DNA of 62,459 nucleotides, the filler included, from Acidimicrobiia bacterium (lineage in GTDB: Bacteria > Actinomycetota > Acidimicrobiia > Spongiisociales > CAZKJJ01), in NCBI GenBank assembly GCA_046759765.1. It is 30 parts of 30 records of this genome, joined end to end, with 100 filler letters (N's around TTAATTAATTAA, not from the genome) between each part and the next. Parts side by side here need not be neighbours in the genome. Positions count along the whole stretch, not along the records: positions 44,717 to 46,616 come from JBHICV010000293.1; 29 more parts are not named here. One strand, given 5' to 3'. How positions within the stretch are numbered: position 1 is the first letter of the stretch; each line of letters begins with the position of its first letter. The notes under the pieces were generated by a model. The model saw only the letters and a list, made by a program, of their open reading frames with translations, had not been told where the DNA came from and did no database searches. Both the position numbers and the translations under genes were made by a program. Positions 4,827 through 59,703 of this stretch are shown one piece after another.

Positions 4827-4884
4827 GTGGATGTCACCCTCAGAGAAACTCGCCGAAACGTTGCAATGACCCCCTGAGACCGCC
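4827..4884 (+). mobile_element. IS30-family right end (transposase C-terminus plus IR)
   Basis: WMSPSEKLAETLQ* followed by GTTGCAATGACCCCCTGAGACCGCC; matches the IS30 end at 44717-44863. Confidence 0.7.
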
Positions 4885-4899
4885 GCACATATGCGCTAC
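4885..4899 (+). repeat. dif-like repeat, right half (interrupted by IS30)
   Basis: GCAC-ATATGCGCTAC directly after the IS end. Confidence 0.85.
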
Positions 4900-6908: not shown

Positions 6909-6936
6909 ACCGCCCATATCGGCACATATGCGCTAC
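6909..6936 (+). repeat. dif-like 28-bp site (11-6-11)
   Basis: ACCGCCCATAT-CGGCAC-ATATGCGCTAC. Confidence 0.9.
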
Positions 6937-6954: not shown

Positions 6955-6984
6955 GCCGCCCATATTGAATCTCTTATGTCAAGG
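6955..6984 (+). repeat. Hybrid site: repeat left arm plus XerD-like arm
   Basis: GCCGCCCATAT-TGAATCTC-TTATGTCAAGG. Confidence 0.6.
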
Positions 6985-29714: not shown

Positions 29715-29900
29715 CCGCCAACAGCTTGGCTGGTATCGGGACGTCCCTTCGCTTTGGCTCCGCCAGGGCTGGTTCACTGTGCCGGTCTGATCTGGCCGTC
29801 CGCCTCCGCCAACAGCTTGGCTGGTATCGGGACGTCCCTTCGCTTTGGCTCCGCCAGGGCGGGTTCACTGTGCCGGTCTGATCTGGCCGTCCGCCTCCGC
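29715..29900. repeat. 91-bp tandem repeat (2+ copies)
   Basis: Units start at 29715 and 29806, one mismatch. Confidence 0.92.
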
Positions 29901-30434: not shown

Positions 30435-31823
30435 ATGAGTACTGCTGAGGCTGGTGTTCGGGCCTCAGAGTCTCCGGTAGGTGTCCTCTACGACGGGTTC
30501 TTGTCCTATAGCCATGCGGCTGATGATCTGTTGGCTCCGAGACTGCAGGCGGGGTTGCAGCGGTTTGCGAAGCCGTGGTGGAAACGCCGAGCCCTCAGGA
30601 TCTTTCGGGATGACGCTTCGCTGTCGGCTAATCCGCATTTGTGGTCTTCGATCACCGACGCACTCGATGAGTCGGGTTGGTTTGTGTTGTTGTTGTCGCC
30701 TGATGCTGCGGCGTCTGAGTGGGTGAACCGGGAAGTCGAGTACTGGCTCTCCCACAAGGAGGCGTCTCGGATTGTGCCGGTGGTGACCGAGGGGGAGTTC
30801 ACATGGGCGGACCGTGACATCAGCCCTGACACGACGGCTGCTCCGCCTGCTCTCTATGGGGCGTTTTCTGAGGAGCCCCGCTGGGTGGATCTGCGCTGGG
30901 CCCGCACTGACACCGACCTCGATCTGCGAAACACCCAGTTCAGAGCTGCGGTGGCCGATATCGCTTCGGCTATCCGGGGGGTGCCCAAGGACGAATTGGC
31001 ATCCGAGGAGGTCAAGCAGCACCGGCGCACGATCCGCATGGCCTGGGCTGCTGGAATCTCAGTCGCGACGCTGGCTCTCCCGGCCGTGGTTGCCGCCGTC
31101 TACGCCGTCGGAAAGGGGAACGAGGCCGAGGCGCAGGCTCGGATCTCCCTGTCGAGGGAGCTGGCCGCCTCTGCTATCAGTCAGCTCGACCGAGATTCCG
31201 AGCTGAGCCTTCTACTGGCCCTGCAGGCCGCAGAAGTATCCCGGGCCGTCGACGGACGCGTGCTGCGTGAGGCGGAGGAGGCGCTGCATGCCGCACTGCA
31301 GCGGTTCCGGCTCGAGCTGACGCTGCCCGAGACAGGTCGGGGCGAGTTCACAGCTGATGGTCGGTCCTTTGTTGCGGCCGACCCGATCTCCTATGGCGAT
31401 TATGTGGGGACGGGAAGCACTTCGGGCCGGCATCGCTTCGCTCGTGAGATGGACGGGGAGGTGGTGCTGTGGGATGGCGAGAGCGGAGAACGGATCGCCG
31501 GCTGGCCCGCCGATGCTCGGGGCGTCGTCGATCTGGCGCTCAGTCCTGACGGCGCGCTGCTGGCGACCACCGGCGACGACGGGGTCAAAGTCTGGGACAT
31601 GGCTGCTCGAACCGAGAAATACCCTCCTCTTTCGCTTCTGGGGCCGATCACGCCGGTTTTTAGCCCCGATGGGAGGTACCTGGCGGCAACCAGCATCCTG
31701 GGCCGGGTGAATGTATGGGACGTTGCCACCGGCGACACAGTTCAATCAATTCCGCACCCGGGTCTCAGACCTGCAGTTCGTGCTGCGATACAAGGCATCG
31801 CCTTCAGCTCCGATGGCTCCGTC
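30435..31823 (+). CDS. TIR domain - TM - WD40 repeat protein (3' truncated)
   Basis: YDGFLSYSH, IFRD, SEWVNRE (catalytic Glu position), TM helix, SPDG..VWD repeats. Confidence 0.88.
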
Positions 31824-32164: not shown

Positions 32165-32192
32165 GTAGCGCATATGTGCCGATATGGGCGGG
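32165..32192 (-). repeat. dif-like 28-bp site
   Basis: + strand GTAGCGCATAT-GTGCCG-ATATGGGCGGG. Confidence 0.9.
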
Positions 32193-32665: not shown

Positions 32666-32694
32666 CCCACCCATATGTGGCCGATATGGCCGGT
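32666..32694 (-). repeat. Degenerate partner dif-like site
   Basis: CCCACCCATAT-GTGGCCG-ATATGGCCGGT. Confidence 0.7.
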
Positions 32695-32710: not shown

Positions 32711-32738
32711 ATAACACATATGTGCCGATATGGGCGGG
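32711..32738 (-). repeat. dif-like 28-bp site
   Basis: ATAACACATAT-GTGCCG-ATATGGGCGGG. Confidence 0.88.
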
Positions 32739-33226: not shown

Positions 33227-33254
33227 GTAGCGCATATGTGCCGATATGGGCGGT
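33227..33254 (-). repeat. dif-like 28-bp site
   Basis: GTAGCGCATAT-GTGCCG-ATATGGGCGGT. Confidence 0.9.
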
Positions 33255-33403: not shown

Positions 33404-33420
33404 GAGCCGATATGGGCGGC
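33404..33420 (-). repeat. dif-like half site
   Basis: GAGCCG-ATATGGGCGGC; the other arm is degenerate. Confidence 0.7.
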
Positions 33421-33776: not shown

Positions 33777-33804
33777 CTAGCGCATATGTGCCGATATGGG
33801 CGGC
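33777..33804 (-). repeat. dif-like 28-bp site
   Basis: CTAGCGCATAT-GTGCCG-ATATGGGCGGC. Confidence 0.9.
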
Positions 33805-34111: not shown

Positions 34112-36177
34112 GAACAACACGACAGGTGGTCGCGTTCGATGTCGCCACCGGCGCGGTCCAGTGGACATATCACGACCCGACCACGATCGGCACCTTCAGG
34201 AGAAGGAGGGTCGGCCTGAGCCCTGACGAGGAATTGGTCACGGTCCAGATCTTCGACATCCCTCTTGTTCAAGACGAGTCGGTCGCCGTTGACGCGGAGG
34301 GCAACGACGAGAACCCTGCCCGGATCGTGGTGCTCCGTGCGTCCGACGGTGAGGTGGTGCGAGTCCTTGAGCCTGGCGCTTGTCGGTTTCTCAATGCTTG
34401 GGGCAACGGGTTCTCCCGAGATGGACAATGGTTTGCGGTATTCACCGGTACTGGGGGGTGCTTCGACGATCCCGATGCCGACTGGGTGACGGTGTATGAC
34501 ACCTCAACTTGGGAGGAGGCGTATCGCCTCCAGATCGATGGTGCGTTCGGGGAGGAGGCGGTGTTCTCGGAGGATTCGAGTCGGGTTCTCCTCTACGGAG
34601 GGGGCCGCCCGACCGAGCTGAGGTCGTTTCCGGAAATGGAGTTGATCAACCGTCTTGATGAAAGCGCTATGGCAGCTCTCAGCCCCGACGGCCAGAAGGT
34701 CGTGCAGTCCTTCTCCATCGTGGTCGTGTCGAGGCCGCTGATTGTGGACGCTGAGACCGGCGAACGCATCGGCTTCCTCGAGTCGGTGGACGATTTCCTC
34801 TCGCTCGACCCCCTTTCGTTCTCTCCGGACGGAACAAAGATTGCGGCCACGACCCATGGAGCTGACTTCGTTTTCGACGCGGAGGACGGACGGATGTTGG
34901 CCAAGCTTGGTGAGCGCGGGTTCACTTTCTCGCACTCGTTCACTGAGGATGGGTCGATGCTGCTCACCGCCACGGAAACCGCCCTGCTGTTGTGGGATCT
35001 CGGTGGCGGTCTGGACGAGTTGGGTGTTCCAATAGAGCCAGCGGACGTCGAAGCGGTCTGGATCAATCCCAATCAGGTAGCTGACGGGCCGAACCTTGCT
35101 GTAAGGCTCTTATTTCCCGACGAGAACGGCGAGATACTGGACTCCAGAGTCGTCACCGCTCTGCTCGATCCCGAGACAGGACAGGTCAGAGATCAGGTAT
35201 CCGGTTTTGGCGTGCAGCTGCCGGACGGGCGTTTCTTTGTCTCACGACAGAGAACTGGCCAGGATGGGGAACGGGTTATCGGTCCTGTCGTGATCTGGGA
35301 TCCGGCTTCGGACTCGTTCGTTGAACTCACCGACTGTGCCGCCCCTGAGTCGGCGATCGATCAGATAAGCGAGATCGACTGTCCGGGAGGCGAGCCCTTC
35401 TATGGAGCCAACGACTGGTTCTTCGGGTCTGTCGTAGCGGCCCTCGATGGATCGTTTTTCGCGGCAGAGTCGTACGCGCCAGTGGGCTCAGAGAGGTCTA
35501 TACGGGTATGGGACGGGGAGACCCTCGACGTCCGATCCGAGTTCGAGGTTCCTCGAAGCCAACATGTCACGGCTGCCGGTGCGGGCTGGCTGGGGACCTT
35601 TGACAGCGATCTCTTTGGTTGGCTCACTGTCTATGACGTTGACTCGGGGGCCGTGCTCGCCGAACCTTCAAAGGCGACAGACAGGCCTTTTTGGGTGTAC
35701 GCGGTTGCTCCGGACGGGTCGCTGCTGTACGCCGCGGACTTGGAGGGGAGCGTTTGGGTCTTTGACACCTTCAGCTGGGAGACCGTGGCCACCTGGGAGG
35801 CGCATGACGCGCGACACCGAGGGCTGGCCCTCTCCCCCGAGGGAACCAGACTGGTGACGACGGGGGAGGACGATTTCGTCAAGGTGTGGGACGTCAGTCG
35901 AATAAGAGACCGATCCTCGGTCACAGAACCCCTGCCGCTTCTCGACCGTATCCCCGCACCCTTCCCATCCGACGCAGCCTGGCTATCGGCAGATCGCCTG
36001 GCAGTGTTCCTGGGCAACGACGCCAACTGGCTCGAAGTGTCACTCTCCATCGACGAGTTGGTCACGAGTGCCCGGCAGCGTCTCACCAGAGGCTTCACAG
36101 AAGGCGAATGCGCCAACTACCAGATCGACGATCCCTGCCCAACGACCCTCGAAGCCATCCAATCAGGCAGCGCATAA
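34112..36177 (+). CDS. WD40 beta-propeller protein (5' truncated)
   Basis: Multiple SPDG/FSxDG..W(D) repeats; C-terminal ARQRLTRGFTEGECANY..PCPT. Confidence 0.88.
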
Positions 36178-36192
36178 CGGCACATATGCGCT
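36167..36192 (+). repeat. dif-like site overlapping the WD40 stop codon, cut by contig end
   Basis: GCAGCGCATAA-CGGCAC-ATATGCGCT. Confidence 0.8.
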
Positions 36193-37021: not shown

Positions 37022-38248
37022 ATGCCTACAGATCCCAAACCCAACATATCACAAAACGCGGTGGAGTCCGACTCGCTCCAAAACGAAATCGACCGCCTGC
37101 TCAGCTCCGGCCTCGAAAACGTCAGTGTTCGCGAGCTCCTGGGACTGATGCTCTCCGCCATCGGTCAATCCGAACGCCGGGCCTATCTTGCCGAGGCGAC
37201 GGCCGACAAAGGCAATGGAGGCTACGGTCGTTCCTTGAACGTCGGCTCCATCCCGGTCGACATCCGGGTGCCCAGAACTCGCAGCGGCACCTTCCGGCCC
37301 CGCTCGCTCCCCCCACCCTACGCACGCGGATACTCCGAAGAGGTGCAGGCCCTTCTCCTCGGTGTGCTCAGCTCCACACGTTCCATCAACGCCGCCAAAA
37401 CCGCCCTCAGACAGATGGGCCTCGGTGCCTGCTCCGATGAGCTCGACACCGTCGCCTCAGGCCTGGTCGAGGAGCTGGAGCTCGTCAACTCGCGTCCCGT
37501 CGACCCTGACCTGCTCGCTGTCTTCCTCGACGGCAAATACGTCGAGGTCAAAGACGGCGACCGGCTGCGCCCGGCTTGCATCTATCTCGTCGTCGGCCTT
37601 CATCGCGATGGAAAGAAGAGAGTCTTGGGTTGCTTTACCCGATACGGACGAGAAGACCTCCAGGAGTGGAAAGCCGTCCTTCGCTCTCTCATCGAAAGGG
37701 GGCTCCGACGTGTCTTGATCGTCATCCACGACGACTTCTCGGGTTTGCTCGGTGTCACTCGAGGCATGTTCCCCAACTCCGATATCCAACTGTGCACCGT
37801 CCACATGCTCCGAAATGTCAGATCGCATCTCAGCAAGTCCGATGCCTCAGAGTTCATCAGCAGGTTTCGCTCTATCAAATCGGCCTGGAATTCCGATGTC
37901 GCCGCCCAGCAGTTCGAGGAGCTCTGCCAGCGTTTCGAAAAATCCTATTCCTCCTTCGTCAAGGAGTTACGGAAGAAGCGACAACATTACCTCGCTTTTC
38001 TCAACTATCCCGATGGCGTCCGGCGCACCCTGTCCACCACCAACGTCGTCGAGGCCGTCAACGGACAACTCGAGATCCTGCGCCGAAACAGCGGTGGCTA
38101 CTTCCAGTCCGAGGAAATCACCAAACTCAAACTCGGGATCGCCATCACCTCTCTCGAAAACGGTAAGTGGCGCAACGTCGCCGCTAACATGAAAGCCGCA
38201 CTCGACCAGATCAATGCCATGTTCGAGGCGCGGTTCGAATCCGAATGA
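37022..38248 (+). CDS. IS256-family (Mutator) transposase
   Basis: NG..R, RVPRTRSGTF, FLDG, L.ERGL, QLCTVH, STTNVVE. Confidence 0.95.
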   Translation: MPTDPKPNISQNAVESDSLQNEIDRLLSSGLENVSVRELLGLMLSAIGQSERRAYLAEATADKGNGGYGRSLNVGSIPVDIRVPRTRSGTFRPRSLPPPYARGYSEEVQALLLGVLSSTRSINAAKTALRQMGLGACSDELDTVASGLVEELELVNSRPVDPDLLAVFLDGKYVEVKDGDRLRPACIYLVVGLHRDGKKRVLGCFTRYGREDLQEWKAVLRSLIERGLRRVLIVIHDDFSGLLGVTRGMFPNSDIQLCTVHMLRNVRSHLSKSDASEFISRFRSIKSAWNSDVAAQQFEELCQRFEKSYSSFVKELRKKRQHYLAFLNYPDGVRRTLSTTNVVEAVNGQLEILRRNSGGYFQSEEITKLKLGIAITSLENGKWRNVAANMKAALDQINAMFEARFESE

Positions 38249-44561: not shown

Positions 44562-44716
44562 TAGAGCTGGTTTGAGCGCTCCGTAGCGGCCTCCGGCCGC
44601 ACACTCGCTCCCTGGGNNNNNNNNNNNNNNNNNNNNNNNNNNNNNNNNNNNNNNNNNNNNTTAATTAATTAANNNNNNNNNNNNNNNNNNNNNNNNNNNN
44701 NNNNNNNNNNNNNNNN

Positions 44717-44863
44717 CCCAAAGGCACCGACATGTCCAAGCTCACCCAAGAAGACCTCGACGCTGCAGCCCACTCCCTCAACGGACGGCCTAGACAAACG
44801 CTCGGATGGAAGACACCATCAGACAAACTCGCCGAAACGTTGCAATGACCACCTGACTCCGCA
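44717..44863 (+). mobile_element. IS30-family right end
   Basis: PKGTDMS..LNGRPRQTLGWKTPSDKLAETLQ* then IR GTTGCAATGACCACCTGACTCCGCA. Confidence 0.88.
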
Positions 44864-44878
44864 GCACATATGCGCTAG
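44864..44878 (+). repeat. dif-like repeat, right half (interrupted by IS30)
   Basis: GCAC-ATATGCGCTAG. Confidence 0.85.
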
Positions 44879-46010: not shown

Positions 46011-46038
46011 CCCGCCCATATCGGCATATATGCGCTAT
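46011..46038 (+). repeat. dif-like 28-bp site
   Basis: CCCGCCCATAT-CGGCAT-ATATGCGCTAT. Confidence 0.9.
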
Positions 46039-46055: not shown

Positions 46056-46083
46056 GCCACCCATATCGGCAGATATGGTTCGG
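46056..46083 (+). repeat. Degenerate partner dif-like site
   Basis: GCCACCCATAT-CGGCAG-ATATGGTTCGG. Confidence 0.75.
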
Positions 46084-46550: not shown

Positions 46551-46580
46551 CCCGCGCAGATCGCAGCACATATGCGCTAC
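46551..46580 (+). repeat. dif-like site with 8-nt spacer
   Basis: CCCGCGCAGAT-CGCAGCAC-ATATGCGCTAC. Confidence 0.75.
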
Positions 46581-59226: not shown

Positions 59227-59703
59227 ATGCGCGGTCCAGCCCCTAAAAATCCGGCTATCCGCCGGCGCAAGAATCGCGTGTCGACCGCTGCGACGCTGCC
59301 CCATCCCGGCAAGAGTAAACGGCGCAAAGTGCCGCCATTGCCGCCGCTCGATGATCCCACCGAGCAGTGGCACCCTGAGGTCATCAGTTGGTGGACTGAG
59401 GTCTGGCGGTCGCCGATGGCGGCTGAATTCCTGGACTCAGACGTCCGAGGCGAGCTCTATGCCCTCGCACGCCTCTATCAGCGGTTCTGGAAGCCGGGAC
59501 TCGACGTGCGAGAACTGTGCAGCCTCTTTCATGCGATCCAGAAGGGCGGCCAGAGCTTCGGCTTGACGCCGATCGATCGCCGTCGCCTCCAGTGGGAAAT
59601 TGAGAAGGGCGAAGAAGCGGCCGATCGCACGAAGAAACGGCGCCAGGCGAAGAAAGCGGCAAAGCGCCAGAAGGATCCACGAAAGGGTCTCAAACTCGCC
59701 TGA
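59227..59703 (+). CDS. Phage terminase small subunit
   Basis: GPAPK..WW..VW.SP..FGLTP.DRRRLQW; upstream of the large subunit. Confidence 0.85.
   Translation: MRGPAPKNPAIRRRKNRVSTAATLPHPGKSKRRKVPPLPPLDDPTEQWHPEVISWWTEVWRSPMAAEFLDSDVRGELYALARLYQRFWKPGLDVRELCSLFHAIQKGGQSFGLTPIDRRRLQWEIEKGEEAADRTKKRRQAKKAAKRQKDPRKGLKLA

Follow-up and report, generated by a model that had tools for sequence, protein, structure and literature searches.

Two diverged IS30-family elements, with a probability that we put at roughly 0.7, inserted between the arms of a multi-copy 26-bp site in this genome by ordinary hot-spot insertion. The right ends of the two elements differ in sequence and stop at the same base of the spacer of this site. 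These insertions fit the known habit of the family to settle in symmetric hot spots and no new mechanism has to be invoked. The array formed by the sites themselves is a more unusual object than the IS30 insertions that it hosts.

Two IS30-family right ends at one base of a spacer

The window, i.e. the whole stretch of DNA analysed, comprises 62,459 bases and consists of 30 contigs (GC content of 59-66% across the 30) ordered by falling length, from 2,330 to 1,590 bp, with linkers of the form N44-TTAATTAATTAA-N44 between them, for instance at 2331-2430 and 44617-44716. Segments lying side by side in this arrangement are not genome neighbours, distances between contigs are meaningless and, since the window is made of joined contigs, the two IS30 junctions represent unlinked loci. 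Both contigs carrying a junction (contigs 3 and 21) start inside the IS, which corresponds to assembly breaks within the element. The window also encodes a bacterial proteasome activator domain and, at 37022-38245, 59227-59700 and 30435-31823, further genes of mobile or defence type, each on a separate contig (a Mutator-family transposase of the IS256 type, the small subunit of a phage terminase and a TIR-WD40 protein). Contig 14 opens with a tandem duplication of a 91-bp unit (29715-29896), the two copies being 99% identical, and a search for Rfam families in the window gave 0 matches. Gene content, such as the proteasome activator domain, and the Actinomycetota MAG from which the best transposase match comes point to a probable actinobacterial metagenome bin.

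The first IS30-family right end lies on the plus strand at 4827-4884, at the start of contig 3 (4827-7051), and comprises the C-terminus of the transposase (4828-4869) and a 25-nt right inverted repeat (IR, 4860-4884) whose boundary is taken from relatives. The second one, also on the plus strand, covers 44717-44863 at the start of contig 21 (44717-46616), with 43 aa of the transposase C-terminus at 44717-44848 and the right IR at 44839-44863. The IRs terminate with ..CCCCTGAGACCGCC at 4884 and ..CACCTGACTCCGCA at 44863, and the ORFs upstream of these two positions end with WMSPSEKLAETLQ and ..LNGRPRQTLGWKTPSDKLAETLQ / PKGTDMSKLTQEDLDAAAHSLNGRPRQTLGWKTPSDKLAETLQ, each before a stop codon. The 14-mer GCACATATGCGCTA is found directly 3' of both ends (4885-4898 and 44864-44877, plus strand) and constitutes in both cases the right part of a split 26-bp site, i.e. 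the four spacer nucleotides GCAC and the right arm ATATGCGCTA. The two IS ends differ at 9/58 positions, the next 14 nt are identical (14/14) and the 40 nt beyond the shared 14-mer match at 12/40, which is the chance level. Two different elements at two loci thus share the same junction, as an earlier note on this DNA had claimed.

The transposase pieces present in the window are the last 43 aa (contig 21) and the last 13 aa (contig 3). The 43-aa fragment shares 100% identity with the C-terminal end of P0002, a protein of 378 aa from an Actinomycetota MAG with rve (PF00665) and HTH_38 (PF13936) domains, annotated at its source as an IS30 family transposase; 2,307 proteins were retrieved with this fragment at E <= 0.001, and the other close relatives are 84-100% identical over it. 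IS30-family elements measure ~1.0-1.5 kb, are bounded by terminal IRs of 20-30 bp, duplicate 2-3 bp of their target and encode one transposase, which is of the DDE (rve) type, measures ~300-400 aa and bears HTH domains in its N-terminal part. The assignment of the window copies to this family goes through the identity with P0002 and the domains of the latter. A tblastn search of the window with P0002 recovered both fragments and no other IS30 piece. Likewise, no IS30 left end was detected in the window by a pattern search (matched exactly by the two right ends and by nothing else), by inspection of all 60 contig ends or by tblastn with P0002, and the junction evidence from this genome consists of two right junctions in one fragmented assembly. 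Both copies are in the same orientation relative to the asymmetric site, which is not expected from purely symmetric recognition, though n=2.

The boundary of the IS was set from 22 aligned full-length homologues and from 80 loci of a genome collection, the best of which (L001, from a Gemmatimonadales MAG) shows 70% aa identity and is followed by Acidimicrobiia MAGs at 62-65%. The right IR pattern could be paired with a left IR in 70/80 loci. Fifty-three of the 80 were used, their IRs matching at 17/25 or better and each side offering 24 nt or more of flank, and 27 were dropped, either for want of a right IR pattern or because of a contig end (10) or for a weak IR match or short flanks (17). 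In the 53 loci, the element is ~1.2 kb long (1.2-1.25 kb) and its 25-bp IRs end at the 25th base from GTTGC. A direct repeat located exactly at the IR end is found in 36/53 (2 bp in 17, 3 bp in 17 and 4 bp in 2, hence 2-3 bp in 34/53), as compared with 15% of mismatched left/right pairs taken as a control, and is lacking in the other 17, L001 among them. The right IRs of the window align without gap to these 25-base IRs, so that the IS ends at 4884 and 44863 and the GCAC.. that follows is target, which upholds the placement of the boundary inside the CGGCAC spacer.

An intergenic 26-bp site in multiple copies

The complete site reads CCGCCCATAT-CGGCAC-ATATGCGCTA, of which the 14-mer GCACATATGCGCTA is the right part. 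Six copies devoid of IS are present in the window at <= 3 mismatches versus 0 in 100 shuffles, and the 14-mer occurs seven times versus 0 in 100 shuffles. Four intact sites are exact and include the 14-mer, one on the plus strand at 6910-6935 and three on the minus strand at 32166-32191, 33228-33253 and 33778-33803; the two others have two mismatches in the right arm (32712-32737, minus strand) or a CGGCAT spacer (46012-46037, plus strand). The sites are intergenic and keep a single orientation within each contig: contig 15 (31924-34011) has four, all on the minus strand and separated by spacings of 546, 516 and 550 bp with unrelated sequence in between, contig 21 has three, all on the plus strand, and contig 3 has two, all on the plus strand. 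Contig 15 has the appearance of a cassette-like array of dif-type sites, with no recombinase on the contig, and one of its intervals contains a small ORF whose N-terminus resembles, by eye, a lipoprotein signal.

Several irregular copies accompany the intact ones. At 46552-46579 (plus strand), a left arm matching at 8/10 (CCGCGCAGAT) and an exact right arm enclose the 8-nt centre CGCAGCAC instead of CGGCAC; the copy with two extra nucleotides that had been reported near 46551 is thus retrieved, and the two extra bases are located at the IS30 insertion point. This centre was considered as an excision footprint and the idea was rejected, because a retained duplication of GC or GCA would give CGGCGCAC or CGGCAGCAC and because copy-out-paste-in transposition leaves the donor intact. 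Two left-type arms are associated in CCACCCATAT-CGGCAG-ATATGGTTCG (46057-46082, plus strand, 45 bp after the site at 46012) and in the variant at 32668-32693, while at 6956-6984 (plus strand, 20 bp after the end of the 6910 site) the left arm CCGCCCATAT is followed by 8 nt and then by TTATGTCAAGG. These three copies share a left-type arm and are each situated 44-46 bp, start to start, after an intact site.

Two right-type arms are found in GCAGCGCATAA-CGGCAC-ATATGCGCT at 36167-36192 (plus strand), at the very end of contig 16. This contig stops exactly where the site ends, and the stop codon of an ORF of 687 aa with WD40 repeats falls in the left arm of the site; the break may reflect several alternative right-hand neighbours in the population. 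Finally, a lone left half-site, CCGCCCATATCGGC, lies at 33406-33419 on the minus strand and stops after CGGC, the sequence that comes next matching the rest of the site at 5/12. The break falls at the position predicted for the left junction of an IS30 that duplicates GC, but no IS30 end follows, and this half-site may have decayed or may mark a past rearrangement.

The pattern CATAW-N6-WTATG occurs 8 times in the window and 0 times in the 595,648 bases surrounding the IS relatives, and a search of a plasmid collection for the site gave chance-level partial matches only (E of at least 0.7). A hairpin or REP-like nature of the site was rejected: for the four sites folded, energies of -2.1 to -5.3 kcal/mol are no better than those of shuffled sequences (z-scores from -0.6 to +0.6), 53-142 of 200 shuffles folding as well as the site.

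Target preference of the transposase clade and competing readings

The flanks of the relatives are symmetric more often than those of controls. A 7-mer mirrored at a matching distance, with at least 6/7 matches, is found in the flanks of 25/53 relatives versus 17% of mismatched pairs, and an ungapped mirrored match of at least 12/20 is found in 9/53 versus 3% and 1% in controls. A weight matrix was built from the 106 half-flanks of the 53 relatives alone, without any sequence of the window. It carries little information per position, and its control of mismatched pairs is inflated by targets common to the proteobacterial loci. The matrix favours G/C at the cut, A/T at +6 and +7, G at +11 and C at +13. 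The score was then computed for 58,566 positions of the window, each taken as the start of a 2-bp duplication. For the seven sites that could be scored, the central GC comes at rank 2 (site starting at 32166), 3 (46057), 5 (6910), 7 (46012), 10 (32712), 12 (33228) and 35 (33778), and the top 20 positions hold six of the seven site centres (hypergeometric p ~5e-21). The sites rank 4-44 when L001 is left out and 19-334, i.e. in the top 0.6%, when L001 and all actinobacterial loci are left out (41 loci left). With a model assuming a 3-bp stagger, the sites do not stand out and the best site centre is 10th, a poor showing that agrees with a 2-bp stagger. The right junctions of the window fall at the central GC of this dyad-symmetric site.

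The closest relative gives a further hint. Its flanks read ..CCGAACATAT-TGCC, then the IS, then GGCA-TTATGTTCGG.., with CATAT/TTATG half-sites mirrored at a distance of 4 nt on either side of the IS, an arrangement shared with the window. However, a direct repeat is lacking at the boundary, and the reconstructed centre would be of 8 or 4 nt and not 6. To judge from this sequence, the nearest lineage would seem to use a related target. The Proteobacteria and Acidobacteriota relatives sit in symmetric sequences other than the window site. In the former, a shared symmetric target (..TGTCCGCTTT, ~4 nt, the IS, ~4 nt, AAAGCGGACA..) is recognized at L028, L040, L042, L044, L045, L047, L049, L053-L055, L059, L061-L063, L077, L078 and L080 and perhaps represents an intergenic repeat of wide distribution on which the IS lands; it lies between ordinary chromosomal genes, with no resolvase gene close by. 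A strict regular expression for this motif, which is looser than the expression, caught 5/53 loci only. Two copies of one IS in a single Acidobacteriota MAG (L005 and L006) have similar flanks, with 12/15 matches on the right, a likeness that points to a preferred target there too.

The earlier note had gone further and proposed an IS30 subgroup specialised for these sites. The insertion point in the spacer stands. The specialisation, for which there are two right junctions from this genome and one relative (L001), goes beyond the data: a matrix drawn from relatives residing in different sequences already ranks the sites at the top, so the general preference of the clade is enough. The same note had stated that IS30 enzymes favour palindromic targets with short duplications, and this agrees with the accessible part of PMC9333248, where IS30 is described as entering near-palindromic hot spots, attacking the two strands 2 bp apart and transposing by copy-out-paste-in via an IR-IR junction. 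For target binding, an N-terminal H-HTH motif is needed according to the portion of PMC1525189 at hand. By analogy, elements of ~1.2 kb with 25-bp IRs and a 378-aa DDE transposase would be copied out as circles with abutted IRs, the transposase would select a near-palindromic hot spot, presumably by direct recognition of the DNA, and the element would enter at the central GC of the spacer (CG/GC/AC). Attack of the target strands 2 bp apart by the two 3'-OH ends would duplicate this GC, and the left junction is predicted to pass from CCGCCCATATCGGC directly into the left IR. The site would be a good target because both of its halves match the half-site preference of the clade, with G/C at the cut, an A/T-rich stretch from +5 to +8 and GCG at about +9 to +13.

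A bolder view would make the sites the crossover sites of an undescribed Xer-type cassette system in Actinomycetota, with the IS30 lineages of the window and of L001 as dedicated hunters. It builds on sites in direct orientation every ~0.5-2 kb around unrelated genes and on one array that ends next to a dif-like XerD arm, and we consider it doubtful; if true, IS30 would split the spacer and so freeze cassettes or hitch-hike on them. Recruitment of the transposase by a Xer-like tyrosine recombinase bound to the site, along the lines suggested for IS1202-family elements that neighbour dif/pdif, would also make of this subgroup a hunter of recombination sites, and we judge it unlikely. The dif-type 10-6-10 layout with its inner CATAT/ATATG, the sites flanking unrelated modules in direct orientation, a left arm that matches the XerC-side arm of the Frankia alni dif at 7/11 by eye (PMC3025954, from the part available) and the precedent of IS aimed at Xer sites in the accessible text of PMC10132070 speak in its favour. 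However, the sites are already predicted from relatives in ordinary intergenic symmetric sequences, no recombinase gene is found among the 78 longest ORFs of the window, and the IS1202 elements of the precedent lie 5 bp outside their site and not in its spacer. Moreover, the 91 ORFs adjoining 26 of the relatives' insertions include 0 with a Resolvase domain and one with a weak Phage_integrase match, the neighbours being ordinary chromosomal genes. The target of the proteobacterial relatives also resembles two arms around a short centre, but in view of these neighbours the hypothesis of a whole IS clade hunting recombination sites was rejected as a general rule. Recombinase recruitment is not needed to explain the insertions.

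The IS copies might also be passengers of site-bounded modules, the half-site next to the IS end having arisen by site-specific recombination or rearrangement and not by transposition. Unrelated modules are indeed bounded by sites, as in the array of contig 15, and some copies are irregular, such as the one at 46552-46579 with its centre of 8 nt and the isolated left half at 33406-33419. Yet tyrosine recombinases exchange strands at the borders of the spacer, whereas the break lies in the middle of the spacer and, in both copies, exactly at the IR terminus of the family, with an identical junction in two different IS variants; this position of the breaks makes such an origin quite improbable. 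A near-random insertion followed by persistence of the sole insertions in sites, as neutral places, would suit their intergenic location, but the same base-pair position in two independent copies and the strong fit to the clade preference render it very improbable.

Finally, the flanks of L001, of L024 and of L058 form almost perfect inverted repeats (14, 18 and 20 of 20) without boundary direct repeat, which possibly result from insertion into perfect palindromes with shifted ends or from inversion between IS copies in like targets. A longer terminal repeat that would include GCACATATGCGCTA, the case that the earlier note had itself named as refuting its reading, could be read in these flanks but is hardly credible and was rejected, the 14-mer being absent from all 80 relatives' loci and present four times in intact sites with no IS nearby (two IS30 fragments only by tblastn), and the IS sequences differing up to the base that precedes it; the 14-mer is thus target DNA and not IS.

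If the hot-spot reading holds, these insertions show cleanly, in a natural setting, how IS30-type elements choose a hot spot, here a defined multi-copy host repeat in which relatives of other phyla allow the cut position to be predicted with base-pair precision, and the target code of this transposase clade would be testable by a simple plasmid assay. It would further explain the bad assembly of such genomes, IS copies piling up in a repeat. Should the sites serve recombination, an IS that splits the spacer would put the site out of action. The family of sites, with its dif-like build, its multiple copies in direct orientation and the unrelated genes that it brackets, is worth a study of its own.

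Comparison with known systems

A chromosomal dif is present as a single copy per chromosome, and the sites of Acinetobacter-type dif modules alternate in orientation (C/D, D/C). In contrast, at least six intact copies plus variants are found here in 59 kb of contigs, and they are in direct orientation. The site nevertheless brackets unrelated gene modules like those of dif modules, and the dif layout of two 11-bp arms, a 6-bp centre and an inner palindrome is found in CCGCCCATAT-CGGCAC-ATATGCGCTA. Its inner CATAT/ATATG is comparable to the GATAA/TTATG of the F. alni dif as given in the available part of PMC3025954, which also reports the conserved XerD-side arm TTATGTCAAGT. By eye, the right arm ATATGCGCTAC matches this XerD-side arm at 4/11 only, while TTATGTCAAGG at 6974-6984, preceded by an 8-nt centre, matches it at 10/11 and is the only such match (same excerpt of PMC3025954).

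Among the best matches in the open full-text literature, none describes an insertion of the IS30 family into a site of the Xer type; PMC12500396 and PMC12907356, in the portions accessible, are unrelated to targeting. The IS1202 family (ISAjo2 type), which targets pdif/dif in Acinetobacter according to the accessible text of PMC10132070, is similar in that an IS recurs at one and the same place beside Xer-type sites bounding gene modules. It belongs to another family, with a TnsB-like transposase of 441-457 aa, and, as far as this text goes, lands 5 bp away from the XerC arm on its outer side, duplicates 5 bp and leaves the site intact, whereas here the spacer is split. IS elements inserting into REP sequences, for which an HTH-based recognition was proposed (PMC1525189, in the portion at hand), likewise use a multi-copy dyad-symmetric host repeat as a landing pad, but the present site forms no stem-loop and has a 6-bp asymmetric spacer between short arms.

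The hot-spot targeting of IS30 in E. coli (Olasz et al. 1998, as cited in the accessible part of PMC9333248) has the same transposase family, a near-palindromic target, a central insertion, a 2-bp stagger and an N-terminal HTH in common with the case described here. On the other hand, the hot spot is here a native 26-bp site in multiple copies with the build of a recombinase core, and the 2-bp duplication is predicted.
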